Origin: Poseidonia sp.
GTDB taxonomy: Archaea; Thermoplasmatota; Poseidoniia; Poseidoniales; Poseidoniaceae
Direction: 5' to 3'
Assembly: GCA_965661285.1 (NCBI GenBank)
Contig: CBFIDD010000007.1
Coordinates: forward strand, 1-25,431
DNA: 25,431 nucleotides
Shown in pieces: positions 1-11,959 of the stretch. Below the pieces are notes generated by a model. That model had not been told where the DNA came from. It was given only the letters and a program-made list of their open reading frames with translations, and did no database searches. The position numbers and the translations under genes were made by a program. Each line of letters begins with the position of its first letter. Position 1 is the stretch's first letter.

Positions 1-235
1 ACCCTTGGAGATGCATTGTGCCTCCTTCACCAATTTCAACTTGCATTACGGCTGAATTGATTGAACATGCTTCAATAACTGTTGTTGAGGTGAGGATACT
101 AATTGCGGCATTGAAGTCCTCTAGAGTAGGCTCTATGCCCTTCTCTTCTTTCAATTCCTTTGTGAACTCCTTGAGGTATCCCGTGACGGCGAAGTTCTTC
201 ACAGGATTGTCCTTAACCTGCTCTTCTGCCATCAT
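1..235 (-). CDS. Hypothetical protein of the element, truncated by window edge (MMAEEQVKDNPVKNFAVTGYLKEFTKELKEEKGIEP...)
   Basis: Translated by hand: open from ATG at 235 to base 1. Preceded by GGAGGG and overlaps the stop of the upstream ORF (ATGA). Confidence 0.65.
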   Translation of the reverse strand, partial: MMAEEQVKDNPVKNFAVTGYLKEFTKELKEEKGIEPTLEDFNAAISILTSTTVIEACSINSAVMQVEIGEGGTMHLQG

Positions 236-411
236 CGACCCTCCAAAATAGATGTAACCTTACAGCCATTCTCATCCTTACAATCCAACCACTTTCTCGC
301 CTTTCGGTGATAGTACTGTAGTGTCTTGATAGTAGTCCCATTCAAGCCCTTCGTGAACTTCCAGCGATGAAGGGTAGACCTCCTCTTGAATGGATTTGAA
401 AATCGCTTCAT
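232..411 (-). CDS. Small basic hypothetical protein, 59 aa (MKRFSNPFKRRSTLHRWKF...)
   Basis: ATG at 411 overlaps the TGA of 411..632 (TGATG), with AGGGGTGG upstream. Its 3' end carries the SD and start of the next ORF. Confidence 0.5.
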   Translation of the reverse strand: MKRFSNPFKRRSTLHRWKFTKGLNGTTIKTLQYYHRKARKWLDCKDENGCKVTSILEGR

Positions 412-632
412 CAAAACCACCCCTGCTCATATCCACATCGATAGCACCAGTAGGAGAAGTGCTTGTATTCATCATTCCATTTCCTTGCTAGTCGAACTCG
501 GTAATTCCTACCATTAGATCTGAACCAACATTTTCCTGTCGGGCAAGGTGGGAAAGCGATGATTCTCCCATCTCGAACCACTGCACCCATCTTCTGATGC
601 CATTCGACATCGTACGGAACATCATCGTTCAT
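411..632 (-). CDS. Small putative zinc-finger protein, 73 aa (CPTGKC...CYRC)
   Basis: In ORF track. SD GGAGGTGG about 5 nt before ATG, ATGA overlap with upstream ORF, two Cys pairs. Confidence 0.65.
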   Translation of the reverse strand: MNDDVPYDVEWHQKMGAVVRDGRIIAFPPCPTGKCWFRSNGRNYRVRLARKWNDEYKHFSYWCYRCGYEQGWF

Positions 633-796
633 TCTTCCACCTCCTCTGCGTGGAGATCACAGCCTGCGGGACTGCCGTAAATGTAGTAATTACATGGGCA
701 GGCATCACAGCATTCTAAACACCAGTAGCATCCACAAGAATACTCAGTCCTGCTGAGATTACCACACGAAGTGCACCGGATTACTTTGCTACTCAT
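629..796 (-). CDS. Cys-rich microprotein, 55 aa, 10 Cys (MSSKVIRCTSCGNLSRTEYSCGCYWCLECCDACPCNYYIYGSPAGCDLHAEEVEE)
   Basis: Translated by hand (below ORF-track cutoff). SD GGAGGTG upstream, ATGA coupling at both ends. Confidence 0.65.
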   Translation of the reverse strand: MSSKVIRCTSCGNLSRTEYSCGCYWCLECCDACPCNYYIYGSPAGCDLHAEEVEE

Positions 797-951
797 TCAC
801 ACACCTCCTTTGAAGGGTGCAATGGATAAGATGCCTCACAGTATGGACAGAAGAATGCTGCTACATCGAATCCCCAAATGGATTCACGTAGATCATCAAC
901 CATCGGTTTGCCACATCGGTAGCAATTGACACGGATTTCGATGGTGTTCAA
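793..951 (-). CDS. Zinc-ribbon microprotein, 52 aa (MNTIEIRVNCYRCGKPMVDDLRESIWGFDVAAFFCPYCEASYPLHPSKEVCE)
   Basis: Translated by hand. TTG start overlaps upstream TGA, SD GGAGGTGA, CxxC...CPxC motif. Confidence 0.65.
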   Translation of the reverse strand: MNTIEIRVNCYRCGKPMVDDLRESIWGFDVAAFFCPYCEASYPLHPSKEVCE

Positions 952-1084
952 ACCATCACCTCCAAGAAGGTCTTGAGAACTGACTTGGCGTTACGATTGT
1001 TACCTTCTTCCAAGTCCTTCAGAGATTGCTCGATATTCTTGAGCAAACGAGTGGTAAAGATGTCATCGACCAGTCTATCGTTTA
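948..1084 (-). pseudogene. C-terminal gene fragment whose frame runs into the tRNA-Tyr 3' half (...INDRLVDDIFTTRLLKNIEQSLKDLEEGNNRNAKSVLKTFLEVMV)
   Basis: No start codon with SD downstream of the tRNA, yet the sequence is helical and protein-like and is coupled to the next ORF. The frame stays open through the tRNA 3' exon and intron. Confidence 0.45.
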
Positions 1085-1188
1085 TGGTCCCCGCTCCCAG
1101 ACTTGAACTGGGGACACCCTGATGTCTGCTGAGACGTTTGTTTTTACACAACTACAGTCAGGTGCTCTACCAACTGAGCTAAGCGAGG
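1085..1188 (-). tRNA. tRNA-Tyr(GTA) with 28-nt intron at canonical 37/38 position (intron 1124..1151), CCA encoded
   Basis: Acceptor stem CCTCGCT/AGCGGGG, discriminator A, then CCA. D arm GCTC/GAGC, anticodon stem CCTGA/TCAGG, anticodon GTA at 1153-1155, T arm CCCAG-TTCAAGT-CTGGG. Bulge-helix-bulge with central helix CTGT/GCAG. Mature length 76 nt. Confidence 0.97.
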
Positions 1189-1211
1189 CATATTGTCCCA
1201 CCTGCCTCCAC

Positions 1212-1218
1212 TACTTAA
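1212..1218 (-). promoter_or_regulatory. TATA-like box (TTAAGTA) of tRNA-Tyr
   Basis: Lies at -30 to -24 relative to the tRNA 5' end, the archaeal TATA position. Confidence 0.55.
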
Positions 1219-1413
1219 CCCTCATCAATCAACAGGGCAGTTTTTGCCACCCATTGGCGTCCGGGGAACAAGGGGTTTTCAAAGGTGGAGGGGTAGTCAT
1301 TAACACCATGCGTGGTGGGGAATTCAAGGTCTCAAAATCGGCGTCTCTGCCGCGGTCGCGACCCTCGCGGTTAAGAGGGGGAAGACAAGGCTCGCCAACG
1401 GAGGAGTGAAAGG

Positions 1414-2595
1414 ATGGGACCTTCAGGCACTTCAGGAAACGCGGTGGGTGGACCATCGGCGCACGATGCGGCGTTTGCCGACATGATTCAGGGGCTCAAG
1501 AACGACGCCGTCAACCGCGGCGCTACCTCCCTCATGGACGAAGAAGTCGGCACGCTGGGCGTTCCCGACCCACGCATACTCATCGTCGGCTGTGGCGGCT
1601 CGGGCAACAACACGCTCAACCGCATCACGCACCTTGGCGTCGAAGGCGCTGTGACCGTCGCCATCAACACCGACAAGCAGCATCTCGACAACACCCGAGC
1701 GCTGCAGAAACTCCTCGTCGGCCGCCACATCACCCGTGGACTCGGTGCAGGCGGCGACCCGTCCACCGGCCGCCGCTGTGCGGAAGCCGGCCGAGAGATG
1801 ATCAAGCGCATCGTCACCGGCGCCGACCTCGTGTTCATCGCCTCTGGACTGGGCGGCGGTTCAGGCACCGGCATCTGTCCCATCGTTGCTGAGGAAGCCA
1901 AAGCGGCCGGTGCCCTGGTCGTTGGCATCGTCACCACACCGTTCCACGTCGAGCGACGCCAACGCATGGCTCGCGCCCTTGAGGGATTGGAATCCCTGCG
2001 CCGCTGCGCCGACGCCGTGCTCGTGCTCGACAACAATCGTCTGCTCCACTTTGTGCCCAACCTCCCGCTTGACGAAGCCTTCTCCATCATGGACCAGCTC
2101 GTCGCTGAAATCGTGAAAGGCATCGTTGAGACCATTACGCTGCCTTCGCTCATCAACTTGGACTTCGCCGACATTCGCGCCATCATGGCCAACGGCGGCG
2201 TCACGATGATGCTCTACGGCGAGTCCGACCGAGGTCCCGAAGAAGTGGTTCACGAAGCGCTCAACCATCCGCTCCTTGATGTGGACATCACCGGTGCGAC
2301 CGGGGTGCTGATTCACGTTACTGGCGGACCCTACATGACGCTCGAAGCGGCCAATCAGGTGGTTGACCTGCTGACCGAGAAAGTGAGCGATAACGCCAAC
2401 GTGATTTGGGGTGCTCGTCAGGACGCTGGTTTCGGTGATACCATCAAGGTCATGGCCATCATCACCGGCGTGGGCGGCACCGACCTCAACACGGCTCGCA
2501 TGAAACCCGATGCGTTGGGCGAAGCCCTCCGGCTGACACGCCAGCAGCAGGCCGACCGTCCCAACAACATGGATTTCCAACGATGGAATGATTGA
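1414..2595 (+). CDS. ftsZ: Cell division GTPase FtsZ (archaeal FtsZ2 clade)
   Basis: Motifs GCGGSGNN, NTDKQHL, GLGAGG and GLGGGSGTG (tubulin signature), plus T7 loop SLINLDFAD. PFHVER and LDNNRLL-x2-VPNLP resemble haloarchaeal FtsZ2. SD GGAGGAG upstream. Confidence 0.96.
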   Translation: MGPSGTSGNAVGGPSAHDAAFADMIQGLKNDAVNRGATSLMDEEVGTLGVPDPRILIVGCGGSGNNTLNRITHLGVEGAVTVAINTDKQHLDNTRALQKLLVGRHITRGLGAGGDPSTGRRCAEAGREMIKRIVTGADLVFIASGLGGGSGTGICPIVAEEAKAAGALVVGIVTTPFHVERRQRMARALEGLESLRRCADAVLVLDNNRLLHFVPNLPLDEAFSIMDQLVAEIVKGIVETITLPSLINLDFADIRAIMANGGVTMMLYGESDRGPEEVVHEALNHPLLDVDITGATGVLIHVTGGPYMTLEAANQVVDLLTEKVSDNANVIWGARQDAGFGDTIKVMAIITGVGGTDLNTARMKPDALGEALRLTRQQQADRPNNMDFQRWND

Positions 2596-7312: not shown

Positions 7313-9517
7313 TCAGTCCTCCCCGAGTTGGCCGACTTCAATCGCCTCACGAGGGGGACCAGATTCGAAGACCTTGTCTTCGTCATCATCGCTGAGCATG
7401 ATACGCAGGGCCACCGCCAATCCACCCCACACGAAGGTGGCGACGAGCGAGAAGGTGAAGAACGCTCCAAACACGCTGCCAAAGGCTGCACGGTAGGAGA
7501 CGTCGAGGACGAAATAATCGCCGTCCGCAGGGTACTGATAGAGGTCGGCGCCACCGAGTGTCGAAACGGTCGCCTTGTAGTGGACTTCACCCACGGCCGT
7601 TTCGGAAACGGGCAGCATGGCCCGCAACAGGGTACCGTTGCCCGCTGCGAGGGAACAACCACCATCGACCATCTCCACACCTGTGCTTTCCCACGGGGTG
7701 GTGGACCACTCGCGGGGACCGAAATCGCTCTGCATGCGGCTGGGCTTGACTTGACGCCACTGGATCATGGTGTCCTTTGTGCTGTAGGGGAATTGGTTCG
7801 AGACGCAGAGTTCGATGGGAATATCGCCCTCCTCTGGGATGTCGACCATCGTGGGCTCTTTGAGGTAGTTTTGCTGTGAAATGTTGGCGATTTCCAAGTC
7901 CGCTCGCTCGCGTGGGTTATCGGCGATTTCAGCGATGTAGAAGCCAAGACCGAGGTTGCGCACGGCAATGTGGTCGATGTCTTCAGGGCGCTGGTGGAAC
8001 GCCGTACCGATTTCTGAAGTGTAGCAGTACGAGCCGTGGACGCCGTAGTGCCAGTCGCAGAAATCACCCGAAGTGGGGTAGAGCGAAGAGGATTGGAGGT
8101 TGGCGTACTGCGTCATGTCAGCCATTTGCTGCCCGTGGTACTGGAGTTGGTTGTGGTCGGGACTTTGACAGTCGGTGCAGTGGCCCCACGGCCAGAGGAT
8201 GAGTTCGGAGTAGGAGTGGTGCGTCAAGGTCGACTTGAATTCGCTGGCGCCGTCGCCCACATCGTCGTTCATTTCCGTCAAGTCTTGAATGAACTTGGTC
8301 TCGGGCTCGGAGTTTCCACCCCACCAGTCTTCGTCGGTCACACCGTCGGCATCGTCGTCCTTGCCGTCGACGTGGTCTTCGTTGATCTGCCCGTCGCCGT
8401 CGTTGTCACGGTCGTCCACCGGGCCGTTGTAGACATCGTTGTTCGACCCGTCAAGCTCGCCTTCAGCGGGCGAACAGGTTCCTGGAATCAACGGTCCCGT
8501 CGCACCCAACGGTGCGCCCCATTCGAACTGGTAATTTCGGTTGAGGTCAACACCGTCGCAGTCCTCATCCACCTCTTCTTGGAGGTCAGGAAGCGGCGTC
8601 ACGCCGGTGAAGGTGTTGTCTCGGAGATTCTTCCTCCATCCACCGCTGGGACATGATTCCCATGCGGGCGCTGGACAGAAGACCTCGCGGTCGTAGATGT
8701 TGCCGTCAACGTTGAGCATGGGGATGATGTAGATCTCACGCGAGTTTACGAGGTCGGTAATCCACTGTTCAGAGTAATCCTCGTCCACGCCAAGGTCGCC
8801 GGGACCACAGTTGGTGCCGTCGCCGTTGGAATCCTGATATTCCGTAGCGAGCGCAAGACAGTCGCCGTCGTCGTCAAGTTGGCCGTCGCCGTTGGCGTCG
8901 CCCCAGGTGTCTTCGTCGACGAGCCCGTCGCCATCGTTATCGTAGCCGATGTTGTTGTAGGAGAAGGCGATGACTTCCAGTTGCATCATCGGTACCTGGT
9001 AGGACATCCACTCACGGGCGTGGTGGTTGCCGACGATCATCACGTCGTGTCGGTCGGGGTAGTTTCCAGTATCGCCTACAAAGTCGTTGTAGTCGCCACC
9101 CTGCACGTCAGCCGTGACTTTTATCCACGGAGAGGCGTGACCGTAATACCAACCTTCGTAGGCGTCGGCCGTCACTTCTTCACCGCGGGCATTGGTGCCG
9201 CCGTTCATGCCCTCGTAGAACGCAAAGATATCGGAATGGTCCTCGGCGAGCCGCATCATGCGTGTTTTCAGCGTCTCGTAGGTGTGGTACTGCTTGAACT
9301 GCAAAATTTCGTCGTTGGCTGGCGCCCATGGGAAAATCATGTTGATGTAATCGTCCGACCAAATGTCTTCGGGTGCATCGCCCGTGGCGGGTTCCTGAGC
9401 GTAGGCGTTCTCGGCAACCGGAGCGGCAAAGGAAAGCAGCAACGGGAGGACGATAAGAAAGCCCAGCGTTGGGCGAGGAGCGGTGGAGCGAAGAGCAACG
9501 GGCGCGGCTGACATCAT
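7313..9517 (-). CDS. Membrane-anchored extracellular M14 zinc carboxypeptidase
   Basis: Signal peptide; motifs HHAREW (HxxE), PMLNVDG, WRKN, GVDLNRNY, SEPET, HSYSE, SGDFCDW, TSEIG; Asp-rich DxDGDG inserts; C-terminal TM helix. Confidence 0.92.
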   Translation of the reverse strand: MMSAAPVALRSTAPRPTLGFLIVLPLLLSFAAPVAENAYAQEPATGDAPEDIWSDDYINMIFPWAPANDEILQFKQYHTYETLKTRMMRLAEDHSDIFAFYEGMNGGTNARGEEVTADAYEGWYYGHASPWIKVTADVQGGDYNDFVGDTGNYPDRHDVMIVGNHHAREWMSYQVPMMQLEVIAFSYNNIGYDNDGDGLVDEDTWGDANGDGQLDDDGDCLALATEYQDSNGDGTNCGPGDLGVDEDYSEQWITDLVNSREIYIIPMLNVDGNIYDREVFCPAPAWESCPSGGWRKNLRDNTFTGVTPLPDLQEEVDEDCDGVDLNRNYQFEWGAPLGATGPLIPGTCSPAEGELDGSNNDVYNGPVDDRDNDGDGQINEDHVDGKDDDADGVTDEDWWGGNSEPETKFIQDLTEMNDDVGDGASEFKSTLTHHSYSELILWPWGHCTDCQSPDHNQLQYHGQQMADMTQYANLQSSSLYPTSGDFCDWHYGVHGSYCYTSEIGTAFHQRPEDIDHIAVRNLGLGFYIAEIADNPRERADLEIANISQQNYLKEPTMVDIPEEGDIPIELCVSNQFPYSTKDTMIQWRQVKPSRMQSDFGPREWSTTPWESTGVEMVDGGCSLAAGNGTLLRAMLPVSETAVGEVHYKATVSTLGGADLYQYPADGDYFVLDVSYRAAFGSVFGAFFTFSLVATFVWGGLAVALRIMLSDDDEDKVFESGPPREAIEVGQLGED

Positions 9518-10762: not shown

Positions 10763-11959
10763 TCAAAACGGCGGCGGCATGCGTCGCTGATGAACGAAAT
10801 GAGCGGCCAGTGCCACACCCGCCGAACCGAGGACAAAGGGAATTTGGACGGGTCCCGAGCCGAGGAGGGCCGCTGCAATCGCAGCCCACATTCCGCCCCG
10901 ACGGACGGCATGAACGGTGCGCAATTCACCGAGTCGAGCCTGAATGCGAGAAACATCGAACAGCCAGCGGTCGCATTGGTCAGCCTGCTGTTGCAGACCG
11001 TAGGCGCGAGCCTCGGCCAACATCAAAAGCATGGCTTCGTAGCGCCAGATCCACACCCCGCCATTGGCGGTTGAGAGGCTGGCGCTCGACGTCCACGAAG
11101 CGGGAACAACCGCCCCCCATGCCCGGTAAAACGCCGCTCGTGATTCAGGCATGGCAAAGCCCTCCATCATCGAAAGGCGCTGTTCAAACATGGCGATGGA
11201 CGAGACGCCCGGGAGGCGTTCACTCGGGGCCAACAGGTGGTCGACCAGGGAGCGAGGACGAGGAACGAGCGCCATGTTCCCGTCAGCATTTGCGACCACA
11301 CCATCGAGTGAGAAATGCGTCGCCGGCAGCCCGACCACGTGCTTGGTGTGCGGGGCTCGCCAGAGGGTGGTGGTCTTGAGTTGGTCTTCGATGGCCTTGA
11401 GGCGCTCGTTCCAGCGGCGCTCCGTGTTCGGCGTGGCGTGGGCAACGAACGCAGCGTGGACACCCGCAGCGGTCCGGACAAGGTCGTGGGGACGTTGTGC
11501 CACGGCTTCGGTGGACAAGCACGTGTGCAACTCAAAAACTACAACTTGGTCGCCGTGCTCGTTTTTCTGCCCCGCTACGGGAAGGACGATTGGAGCATCG
11601 GCCAGCGCATTCGCCCAGGGGTCAAACAGGGCGAGCGTGGAAACATCTGTTCCCGTTTGGAGAGGAGAGAGGCACGCCGTCCATGTTCCGTTGAGGTGAA
11701 CGGTCACGCCGGAGCGGTGCTCAGCGACGACCTCAACCGAGGTGATGGTTGCTGGCCACTGACCCCAGCGGCCGCTTTGGTCCCGATTCCACCAGTCTGG
11801 ATTCAATGCATGCGTGTGGTCCCAGCCGTAGAGACGGCCCCAAGGCGAAGGCAAACCTTCTGCGAAGGTGGTCGGGTCGCAGGGGCGGTCAACCAAAGCG
11901 TGCGGAAACCACGGCGGATGAACAGCGGGTTGCGCCGAAGAATCGGTGGTCGCTGCCAT
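10763..11959 (-). CDS. Hypothetical protein with C-terminal TM hairpin (possibly degenerate APH/kinase-like fold)
   Basis: 398-aa ORF filling the gap between mscS and uppS. TTGAAG at -28 of the ATG and two hydrophobic C-terminal segments. Confidence 0.72.
   Translation of the reverse strand: MAATTDSSAQPAVHPPWFPHALVDRPCDPTTFAEGLPSPWGRLYGWDHTHALNPDWWNRDQSGRWGQWPATITSVEVVAEHRSGVTVHLNGTWTACLSPLQTGTDVSTLALFDPWANALADAPIVLPVAGQKNEHGDQVVVFELHTCLSTEAVAQRPHDLVRTAAGVHAAFVAHATPNTERRWNERLKAIEDQLKTTTLWRAPHTKHVVGLPATHFSLDGVVANADGNMALVPRPRSLVDHLLAPSERLPGVSSIAMFEQRLSMMEGFAMPESRAAFYRAWGAVVPASWTSSASLSTANGGVWIWRYEAMLLMLAEARAYGLQQQADQCDRWLFDVSRIQARLGELRTVHAVRRGGMWAAIAAALLGSGPVQIPFVLGSAGVALAAHFVHQRRMPPPF

Follow-up and report, generated by a model that had tools for sequence, protein, structure and literature searches.

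We asked which gene is represented by a reading frame that runs out of the 3′ half of a tRNA gene and into an apparently integrated element in a marine archaeon. The DNA analysed, called the window throughout, covers the first 25.4 kb of contig C7 in a 1.98-Mb genome assembled in eight contigs (G000); the hosts considered here are Ca. Poseidoniaceae (Marine Group II) MAGs, which are mesophilic marine archaea. Assembly of the element stops at the contig start, so that the window contains only 1.1 kb of it. The tRNA gene was identified with the Rfam model RF00005 (52.9 bits, E = 7.4e-10), and its anticodon loop has an insert of 31 nt; the match covers model positions 1–71 of 71 with a full cloverleaf and is above the gathering score of 29. 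ARAGORN called no tRNA at 1088–1188. Reading the Rfam alignment gave the exon and intron limits shown in Table 1; further, CCA is encoded in the tRNA-Tyr gene (1085–1087), and the gene, including its intron, is conserved in relatives. The GC content is 0.45–0.48 up to position ∼1200 and at least 0.6 from where the host gene ftsZ begins.

A preliminary description of this DNA, made from its letters, had noted that the frame, referred to here as ORF1, is open through the tRNA 3′ exon and the whole intron, that it has no start of its own after the tRNA and that it is coupled to the next gene, and had proposed that it is part of a gene other than an integrase that contains attP and is split by integration. 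We found that ORF1 is indeed open over 67 codons from stop to stop (948..1151, minus strand) and that the stop upstream of it is the TAG at 1152–1154, i.e. positions 35–37 of the anticodon loop. The coupling is likewise as described; the TGA stop of ORF1 (948–950) overlaps the TTG start of orf2 as TTGA, and a GGAGGTGA Shine-Dalgarno (SD) sequence lies 4 nt upstream of that start. The significance given to the intron did not hold up. The 12 further codons beyond the att core (Table 1) would be open by chance with a probability of ∼0.56, and the frame varies from 59 to 67 codons among copies of the element. Because openness is expected by chance and the length differs among copies, we conclude that the frame is open through the intron by chance and that this part of it has no role.

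Table 1. Positions of the tRNA-Tyr gene, the att core and the genes on either side of it in the window
Feature	Position	Strand	Description
tRNA-Tyr(GUA)	1088..1188	−	Exon 1, 1152–1188; exon 2, 1088–1123; read from the Rfam alignment
tRNA-Tyr intron	1124–1151	−	28 nt, canonical 37/38 position; limits read from the alignment
att core (attL copy)	1085..1111		27 bp: end of the T-stem 5′ strand, T-loop, T-stem 3′ strand, acceptor 3′ strand, discriminator, CCA
int(C)	948..1111	−	Core-encoded ...SSSLGAGT, 45 element-specific codons and TGA; in frame with Int(N)
Chance-open extension	1112..1151	−	Remainder of exon 2 and entire intron, up to TAG 1152–1154
orf2	793..951	−	52 aa, CxxC...CxxC, zinc-ribbon-like; TTG start, strong SD; sub-threshold zinc-ribbon Pfam matches
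orf3	629..796	−	55 aa, Cys-rich; ATGA overlap with orf2; SD; no family
orf4	411..632	−	73 aa; SD; no family
orf5	278..475	−	65 aa; no family
Rep N-terminus	2..235	−	Off the contig start; weak PF02407 match, E 0.11
Host ftsZ	1414..2595	+	Pfam Tubulin 140 bits, FtsZ_C 92 bits; chromosomal flank, tRNA 5′ side

The partner of ORF1 was found at the distal end of the element in other MAGs. As attB, attL, and attR, respectively, the empty site in G107 and the two element ends in G097 (contigs C3 and C5) share exactly a 27-nt core and diverge from one another on the expected sides. The locus at the start of G097:C5 (L043) runs on from the element into host DNA by way of a 27-nt copy of the tRNA 3′ end, and this host flank is homologous to what lies immediately behind tRNA-Tyr at the empty site of G107. 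An ORF in L043 (2521..3873, 450 aa) reads the core as ...SSSLGAGT and continues for 12 codons of host flank; ORF1 reads the core as the same SSSLGAGT and continues as INDRLVDD.... The part of this ORF that ends with the core, Int(N), is a 438-codon tyrosine recombinase gene that reads into the core in the same frame as ORF1. When the distal flank, the core, and the proximal flank were joined by script into an in silico attP, a single ORF of 483 codons was obtained for the G097 pair, for the G099 pair, and with the flank of the window. The preliminary description had proposed rebuilding attP in this way, and the outcome, a fusion in frame with ...SSLGAGTINDRLVDD..., bears out its view that attP lies inside a gene that is split by integration. 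Because the fusion is in frame, ORF1 represents the last 45 codons of int. We conclude that positions 1–1111 of the window are, with high probability, the attL end of a ∼10.8-kb element integrated in tRNA-Tyr and that ORF1 is the int(C) portion of its tyrosine recombinase gene.

In the source genome, the tRNA 3′ half does not recur over 13 nt or more, and neither tblastn nor a genome search detected Int(N); the pairing of the window with Int(N) therefore rests on near-identical copies in other MAGs. Low-GC contig ends of the source genome (C4 5′, C6 3′, and C7 3′) were considered as the continuation of the element and rejected, as their ORFs are, by reading, glycosyltransferase-like or large surface-protein-like. 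Within the same genus, a search with window positions 1–1090 matched 2 of 60 genomes, G000 itself and G013, in which the element match is 39 nt at one contig start; a second G013 match (C27) was discarded as chance-like similarity inside an unrelated, host-like coding region.

Int(N) matches the Pfam family PF00589 over residues 127–303 (E = 1.3e-5) with 25.5 bits, which is below the gathering cut-off of 27.1, and homologues that are 37–47% identical to Int(N) carry a precomputed PF00589 assignment. Six residues (Arg-176, Lys-199, His-263, Arg-266, His-289, and Tyr-299) are invariant in nine aligned homologues, down to 34% identity, and match the catalytic R-K-H-R-H/W-Y set of tyrosine recombinases, the roles being assigned by reading. 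An AlphaFold (AF2) model, built from this shallow alignment, is confident over approximately residues 1–280 and of low confidence after residue ∼285, with a pLDDT of ∼30 for residues 394–450. When this model was compared with the PDB using Foldseek, all matches listed were tyrosine recombinases (probability 1.00, E 7e-5 to 3e-3), namely lambda Int, Brujita Int, XerH, XerA, Tn1549 Int, XerD, and Cre. A sequence search with Int(N) against PDB chains gave no meaningful match, tblastn against 50,697 phage records gave none at E 1e-3, and Int(N) did not match PF16795 at E values up to 1. We conclude that the gene that reads into the core is, judged by its conserved residues and its predicted fold, a tyrosine recombinase. 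All of the catalytic residues, and the start of int itself, stay in Int(N), and the core-encoded residues (about codons 430–438) lie ∼130 codons past the catalytic tyrosine, in the low-confidence region of the model. The 45-residue int(C) contains no tyrosine, and it has no catalytic residues because all of these lie upstream of the att core. The preliminary description was thus right that the fragment is devoid of catalytic residues and wrong that the split gene is something other than an integrase.

A word-indexed search with Int(N) returned 24 proteins, of which we read 20, together with eight further members of the largest cluster (206 members; the eight are among the 15 members listed). 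Of the 23 close homologues read (14 from the search, the eight cluster members, and the query), 17 have the sequence in common up to ...SSSLGAGT and then continue into unrelated tails; the listed homologues have total lengths of 430–511 aa. The other close homologues include two with a variant core, four that stop or diverge at or within the core, and one chimera. Divergent tails after ...SSSLGAGT are as expected if Int(N) reads into different host flanks. In P0024, which is 47% identical, the core is in the same frame as Int(N). Five more distant relatives (P0025–P0029, 37–43% identical) end in ...VPAPRLELGTP and have no tail beyond it; this ending is the opposite-strand translation of the same tRNA-Tyr 3′ end and is present in two copies in P0027. 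A plus-strand ORF of the window (892..1122) ends likewise in ...VPAPRLELGTP. Thus, it is a family trait that the 3′ end of int overlaps the tRNA-Tyr core, whichever the orientation, and the 45-residue extension is specific to the clade of the integrase described here.

A tandem array is present directly after tRNA-Tyr in G107 (L044 10307–10501; period 83, 2.3 copies), and such an array is also found in L008, L016 (14060–14361), and L043 (3836–3930). The units, each of which has an inverted repeat inside it and closes with the final 13–15 nt of the tRNA, could be remnants of former att sites or a small structured repeat. It is this array that is translated into the variable, host-encoded tails of Int(N).

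This geometry shows the following course of events. The int gene of the free element must carry the attP core, which has the sequence of the tRNA-Tyr 3′ end, in frame close to the end of its 483 codons. Recombination with the tRNA gene rebuilds tRNA-Tyr and leaves the last 45 codons of int, with neither start nor SD, directly behind it, and Int(N) is carried to the far end (attR), where it reads from a few to ∼70 codons into host DNA. We further propose that full-length Int would be the integrating form, and loss or exchange of its tail could alter its activity, specificity, or directionality, by analogy with the integrase of phage Mx8. On the circle, int would lead into orf2–orf5 and rep on the same strand by way of the TTGA overlap. 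Integration would uncouple these genes from int, and the genes from orf2 to rep would then stand behind the tRNA gene in the same orientation, where they might be cut off from their promoter or transcribed by read-through from the tRNA, as the preliminary description suggested.

It is tempting to go further, and we do so tentatively, by placing attP in a flexible linker near the int end and regarding the tail swap as a switch of directionality or lysogeny, in a Poseidoniales family that arose independently of the SSV-type integrases. Full-length Int would then integrate, and the tail-less Int(N) would be biased towards excision, weakened, or altered in specificity; integration would reversibly swap a helical tail of 45 residues for host residues and, at the same time, cut the genes from orf2 to rep off from int. 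A different view of the tail is that the split is real and that the 45 residues are dispensable read-through, a neutral by-product of the position of attP at the int end, so that integration would leave integrase activity unchanged. This is possible, although we are inclined to doubt it. The proteins of the sister clade P0025–P0029 end inside tRNA-derived sequence and have no tail, the model is of low confidence throughout the region concerned (see above), and the tail matches no family. Against these points, the 45 codons would stay open by chance with a probability of only ∼0.12, and Mx8 provides, according to a review (PMC6070905), a precedent for a functional effect of a tail swap. Two variants of the tail were seen, whose DNA differs at 7 of 135 positions with three residue changes, a comparison that is uninformative on function.

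We consider it very improbable that ORF1 is instead an independent small gene, translated from an SD-less TTG (codon 36, which would give 32 aa) or by read-through from the tRNA, and that the shared frame is incidental. Past the tRNA, the in-frame start-type codons of ORF1 are TTG at codons 36, 47, and 63, GTG at codon 65, and ATG at codon 66, and there are no others. The earlier claim that ORF1 lacks a start of its own after the tRNA thus holds for ATG and GTG, neither of which occurs before codon 65, and is too strong for TTG, at which the frame may begin without an SD. The TTGs in themselves, the overlap of the ORF1 stop with the orf2 start, as in coupled genes, and the occurrence of the frame behind at least four different upstream contexts would suit a separate gene, as would its conservation. 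When 401 genomes of the order were searched in six frames with the 45 residues that follow the tRNA, eight matched, G000 included; six of the seven others belong to a sister genus and one to another genus of the family. The residues are 98–100% identical in six other MAGs (all or nearly all residues matched); the match in G209 covers only 18–19 residues. However, this conservation says little, as the copies are only 1–8% diverged in DNA. No SD precedes any of the start-type codons of ORF1, whereas orf2, orf3, orf4, and rep each have one, and the free element would necessarily translate ORF1 as the end of int, there being no stop between them. Further, no family, and no homologue that begins at such a start, was found; Pfam and PHROGs searches with ORF1 and orf2–orf5 gave nothing above threshold.

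The version of the preliminary description, in which attP lies in a non-integrase gene that is cut by integration, would agree with a 45-residue fragment devoid of catalytic residues and with the CHAT-domain protein found upstream of the core in G107 and G273, but it is hardly credible, as the distal-end gene that reads into the core in the frame of ORF1 is a tyrosine recombinase, and the CHAT gene is in another frame, stops 9 nt past the CCA, and lies on a contig with no other element gene.

The CHAT-domain gene itself may point to a second site. In G107:C2 and G273:C125, the core connects ORF1 with the 3′ end of a gene for a CHAT-domain protein of 1140–1157 aa, which reads the core in a different frame from ORF1 and offers it no long in-frame partner; the last 11 residues of the CHAT protein are encoded by the core and the element flank. 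The two loci (L040 1–5511 in G107:C2 and L039 1–5699 in G273:C125) are distinguished by a 51-nt indel that immediately precedes the core. A genome search did not find the matching attR of these junctions. Because these contigs contain no other element gene, and because the tRNA-Tyr site of G107 is empty, we read the junctions as putative attL sites at a second target. The stretch ...THILRHDSAT... of the CHAT protein was considered as an integrase box II and dropped, since this protein matches the CHAT domain (57 bits) and no recombinase. We also note that a 1.25-kb segment beyond the CHAT gene is 90–94% identical to G000:C2:442729-443974.

The element recurs in G097, G099, G113, and G400, in each case at tRNA-Tyr beside ftsZ and 92–99% identical to window positions 1–1230. 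G099:C2 (L034, 1–10917) contains the whole ∼10.8-kb element, from 8 nt inside the tRNA-derived repeat to the tRNA, and it shares its first 3816 nt, at 100% identity, with the start of G097:C5 (L043). Nearly all of its ORFs are on one strand, and several belong to no family. The full Rep homologue in L034 (423 aa) matches Viral_Rep (PF02407; 26.8 bits, cut-off 26) and, just above the cut-off of 21.5, RNA_helicase (PF00910, SF3 helicase; 21.9 bits). The element in L034 also has a 248-aa P-loop ATPase-like ORF, with a sub-threshold match. In size and gene set, it may be comparable to pleolipovirus-like elements or plasmids.

A mosaic boundary is seen in L034 at ∼7695–7701. The distal 7.7 kb of L034, with the structural genes and int, is 100% identical in G099 and G113 and, over 3.8 kb, in G097; these three MAGs, which have both ends of the element, may share samples and so do not count as fully independent. 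On the Rep side, identity among copies falls to 85–92% over 3 kb. Contigs of three sequencing runs show loose ends at L034 7695 or 7701. Apart from this, an opposite-strand joint between L034 4062 and 5590 occurs in one contig in each of three of four runs, and a search for inverted repeats at this joint found none. Many Poseidoniaceae MAG contigs start or end in or beside tRNA-Tyr (G004, G007, G013, G016, G017, and G023); such breaks in relatives fit a hot spot at which several coexisting forms disrupt assembly.

Neither an unsplit int nor an attP form was found in any collection that we searched. The INDRLVDD tail was absent from the 15 homologues and from the eight cluster members read (among 15 listed of 206), and a search with ORF1 for longer proteins scored none of 49 candidates, which is weak evidence. 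With phmmer, ORF1 matched five sequences of 59–132 aa among 1.84 billion representatives, none of them an unsplit int. No relative turned up in IMG/VR when it was scanned with orf4, ORF1, the Rep N-terminus, Int(N), and a 31-nt DNA pattern. A scan of JGI metagenomes with ORF1 gave at least 598 pattern stretches, from which one locus was confirmed, a further attL at a contig end; a pattern scan of genome contigs gave six loci, all of them copies already known. The 1110 nt of the element in the window are fully contained in 14 public marine runs of 13 studies. The Logan contigs of four runs stop at the core (for example, record 17 of X7 begins at L034:1, and two others, records 24 and 16, stop at 10795 and 10800), and no joint between the element ends is present among those listed; as contigs that end at the core, these data give no verdict on the circular form.

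Little has been described of the temperate elements of these hosts, which are mesophilic archaea abundant in the ocean; one survey found only 11 short, low-quality proviruses (PMC11706807). No earlier description of such an arrangement in Poseidoniales was found in the open-access literature that we searched. For genome analysis, the arrangement means that a 27-bp core breaks MAG assemblies at tRNA-Tyr and that gene callers report the halves of int as unrelated proteins with variable ends. Further, the position of the cut spares the enzyme, and thus both tail-swap directionality and independent origins of attP within int become testable. If the tail swap did act as a switch, it would be a non-suicidal answer to the paradox discussed for suicidal integrases.

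Among known systems, the Poseidoniaceae elements named Charybdis are described, in part of the account (bioRxiv 10.1101/2025.08.03.668216), as circular elements of Poseidoniales of ∼4.6 kb with no recognisable replication gene, some of which carry an integrase and are integrated beside tRNA genes in Ca. Poseidoniaceae MAGs. The element studied here is unlike these, as far as the description of Charybdis sets it apart, in its ∼10.8 kb and in its HUH/SF3-helicase Rep. With classical integrases of the lambda, pNOB8, and SNJ2 types, Int shares its predicted fold, the putative catalytic residues, and a target at the tRNA 3′ end. In those systems, however, attP lies beside int, which is intact after integration, whereas the frame of int crosses the core here.

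The suicidal integrases of SSV1/2, pTN3, and pT26-2 are also archaeal, with attP inside the ORF, a tRNA target, and a gene split into int(N) and int(C); according to passages of a review (PMC8371274), they belong to PF16795, form one monophyletic group from hyperthermophiles, and have a catalytic Int(C), and both halves are inactive pseudogenes. Int resembles them in that the attP core is inside the int ORF and the gene is partitioned on integration. It differs in that it has no PF16795 match, its catalytic domain is in Int(N) and not in Int(C) and is not parted from its start by the split, the cut falls ∼130 codons after the tyrosine, and its Poseidoniaceae hosts are mesophilic marine archaea and not hyperthermophiles. 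The reconstructed gene shows attP within int in a tyrosine recombinase lineage other than the PF16795 group. The passages of the same review on archaeal tyrosine recombinases make no mention of Mx8 or of Poseidoniales (PMC8371274).

The closest arrangement is that of phage Mx8, in which, according to a review (PMC6070905), attP lies within int and integration creates a new int 3′ end, by which the enzyme is not inactivated and its specificity is changed. [quoted passage not shown] This likeness is one of arrangement. Unlike Mx8, a tailed phage of the bacterium Myxococcus xanthus, the present system would combine such an exchange with an archaeal host, an element of ∼10.8 kb, and a rolling-circle-type Rep.
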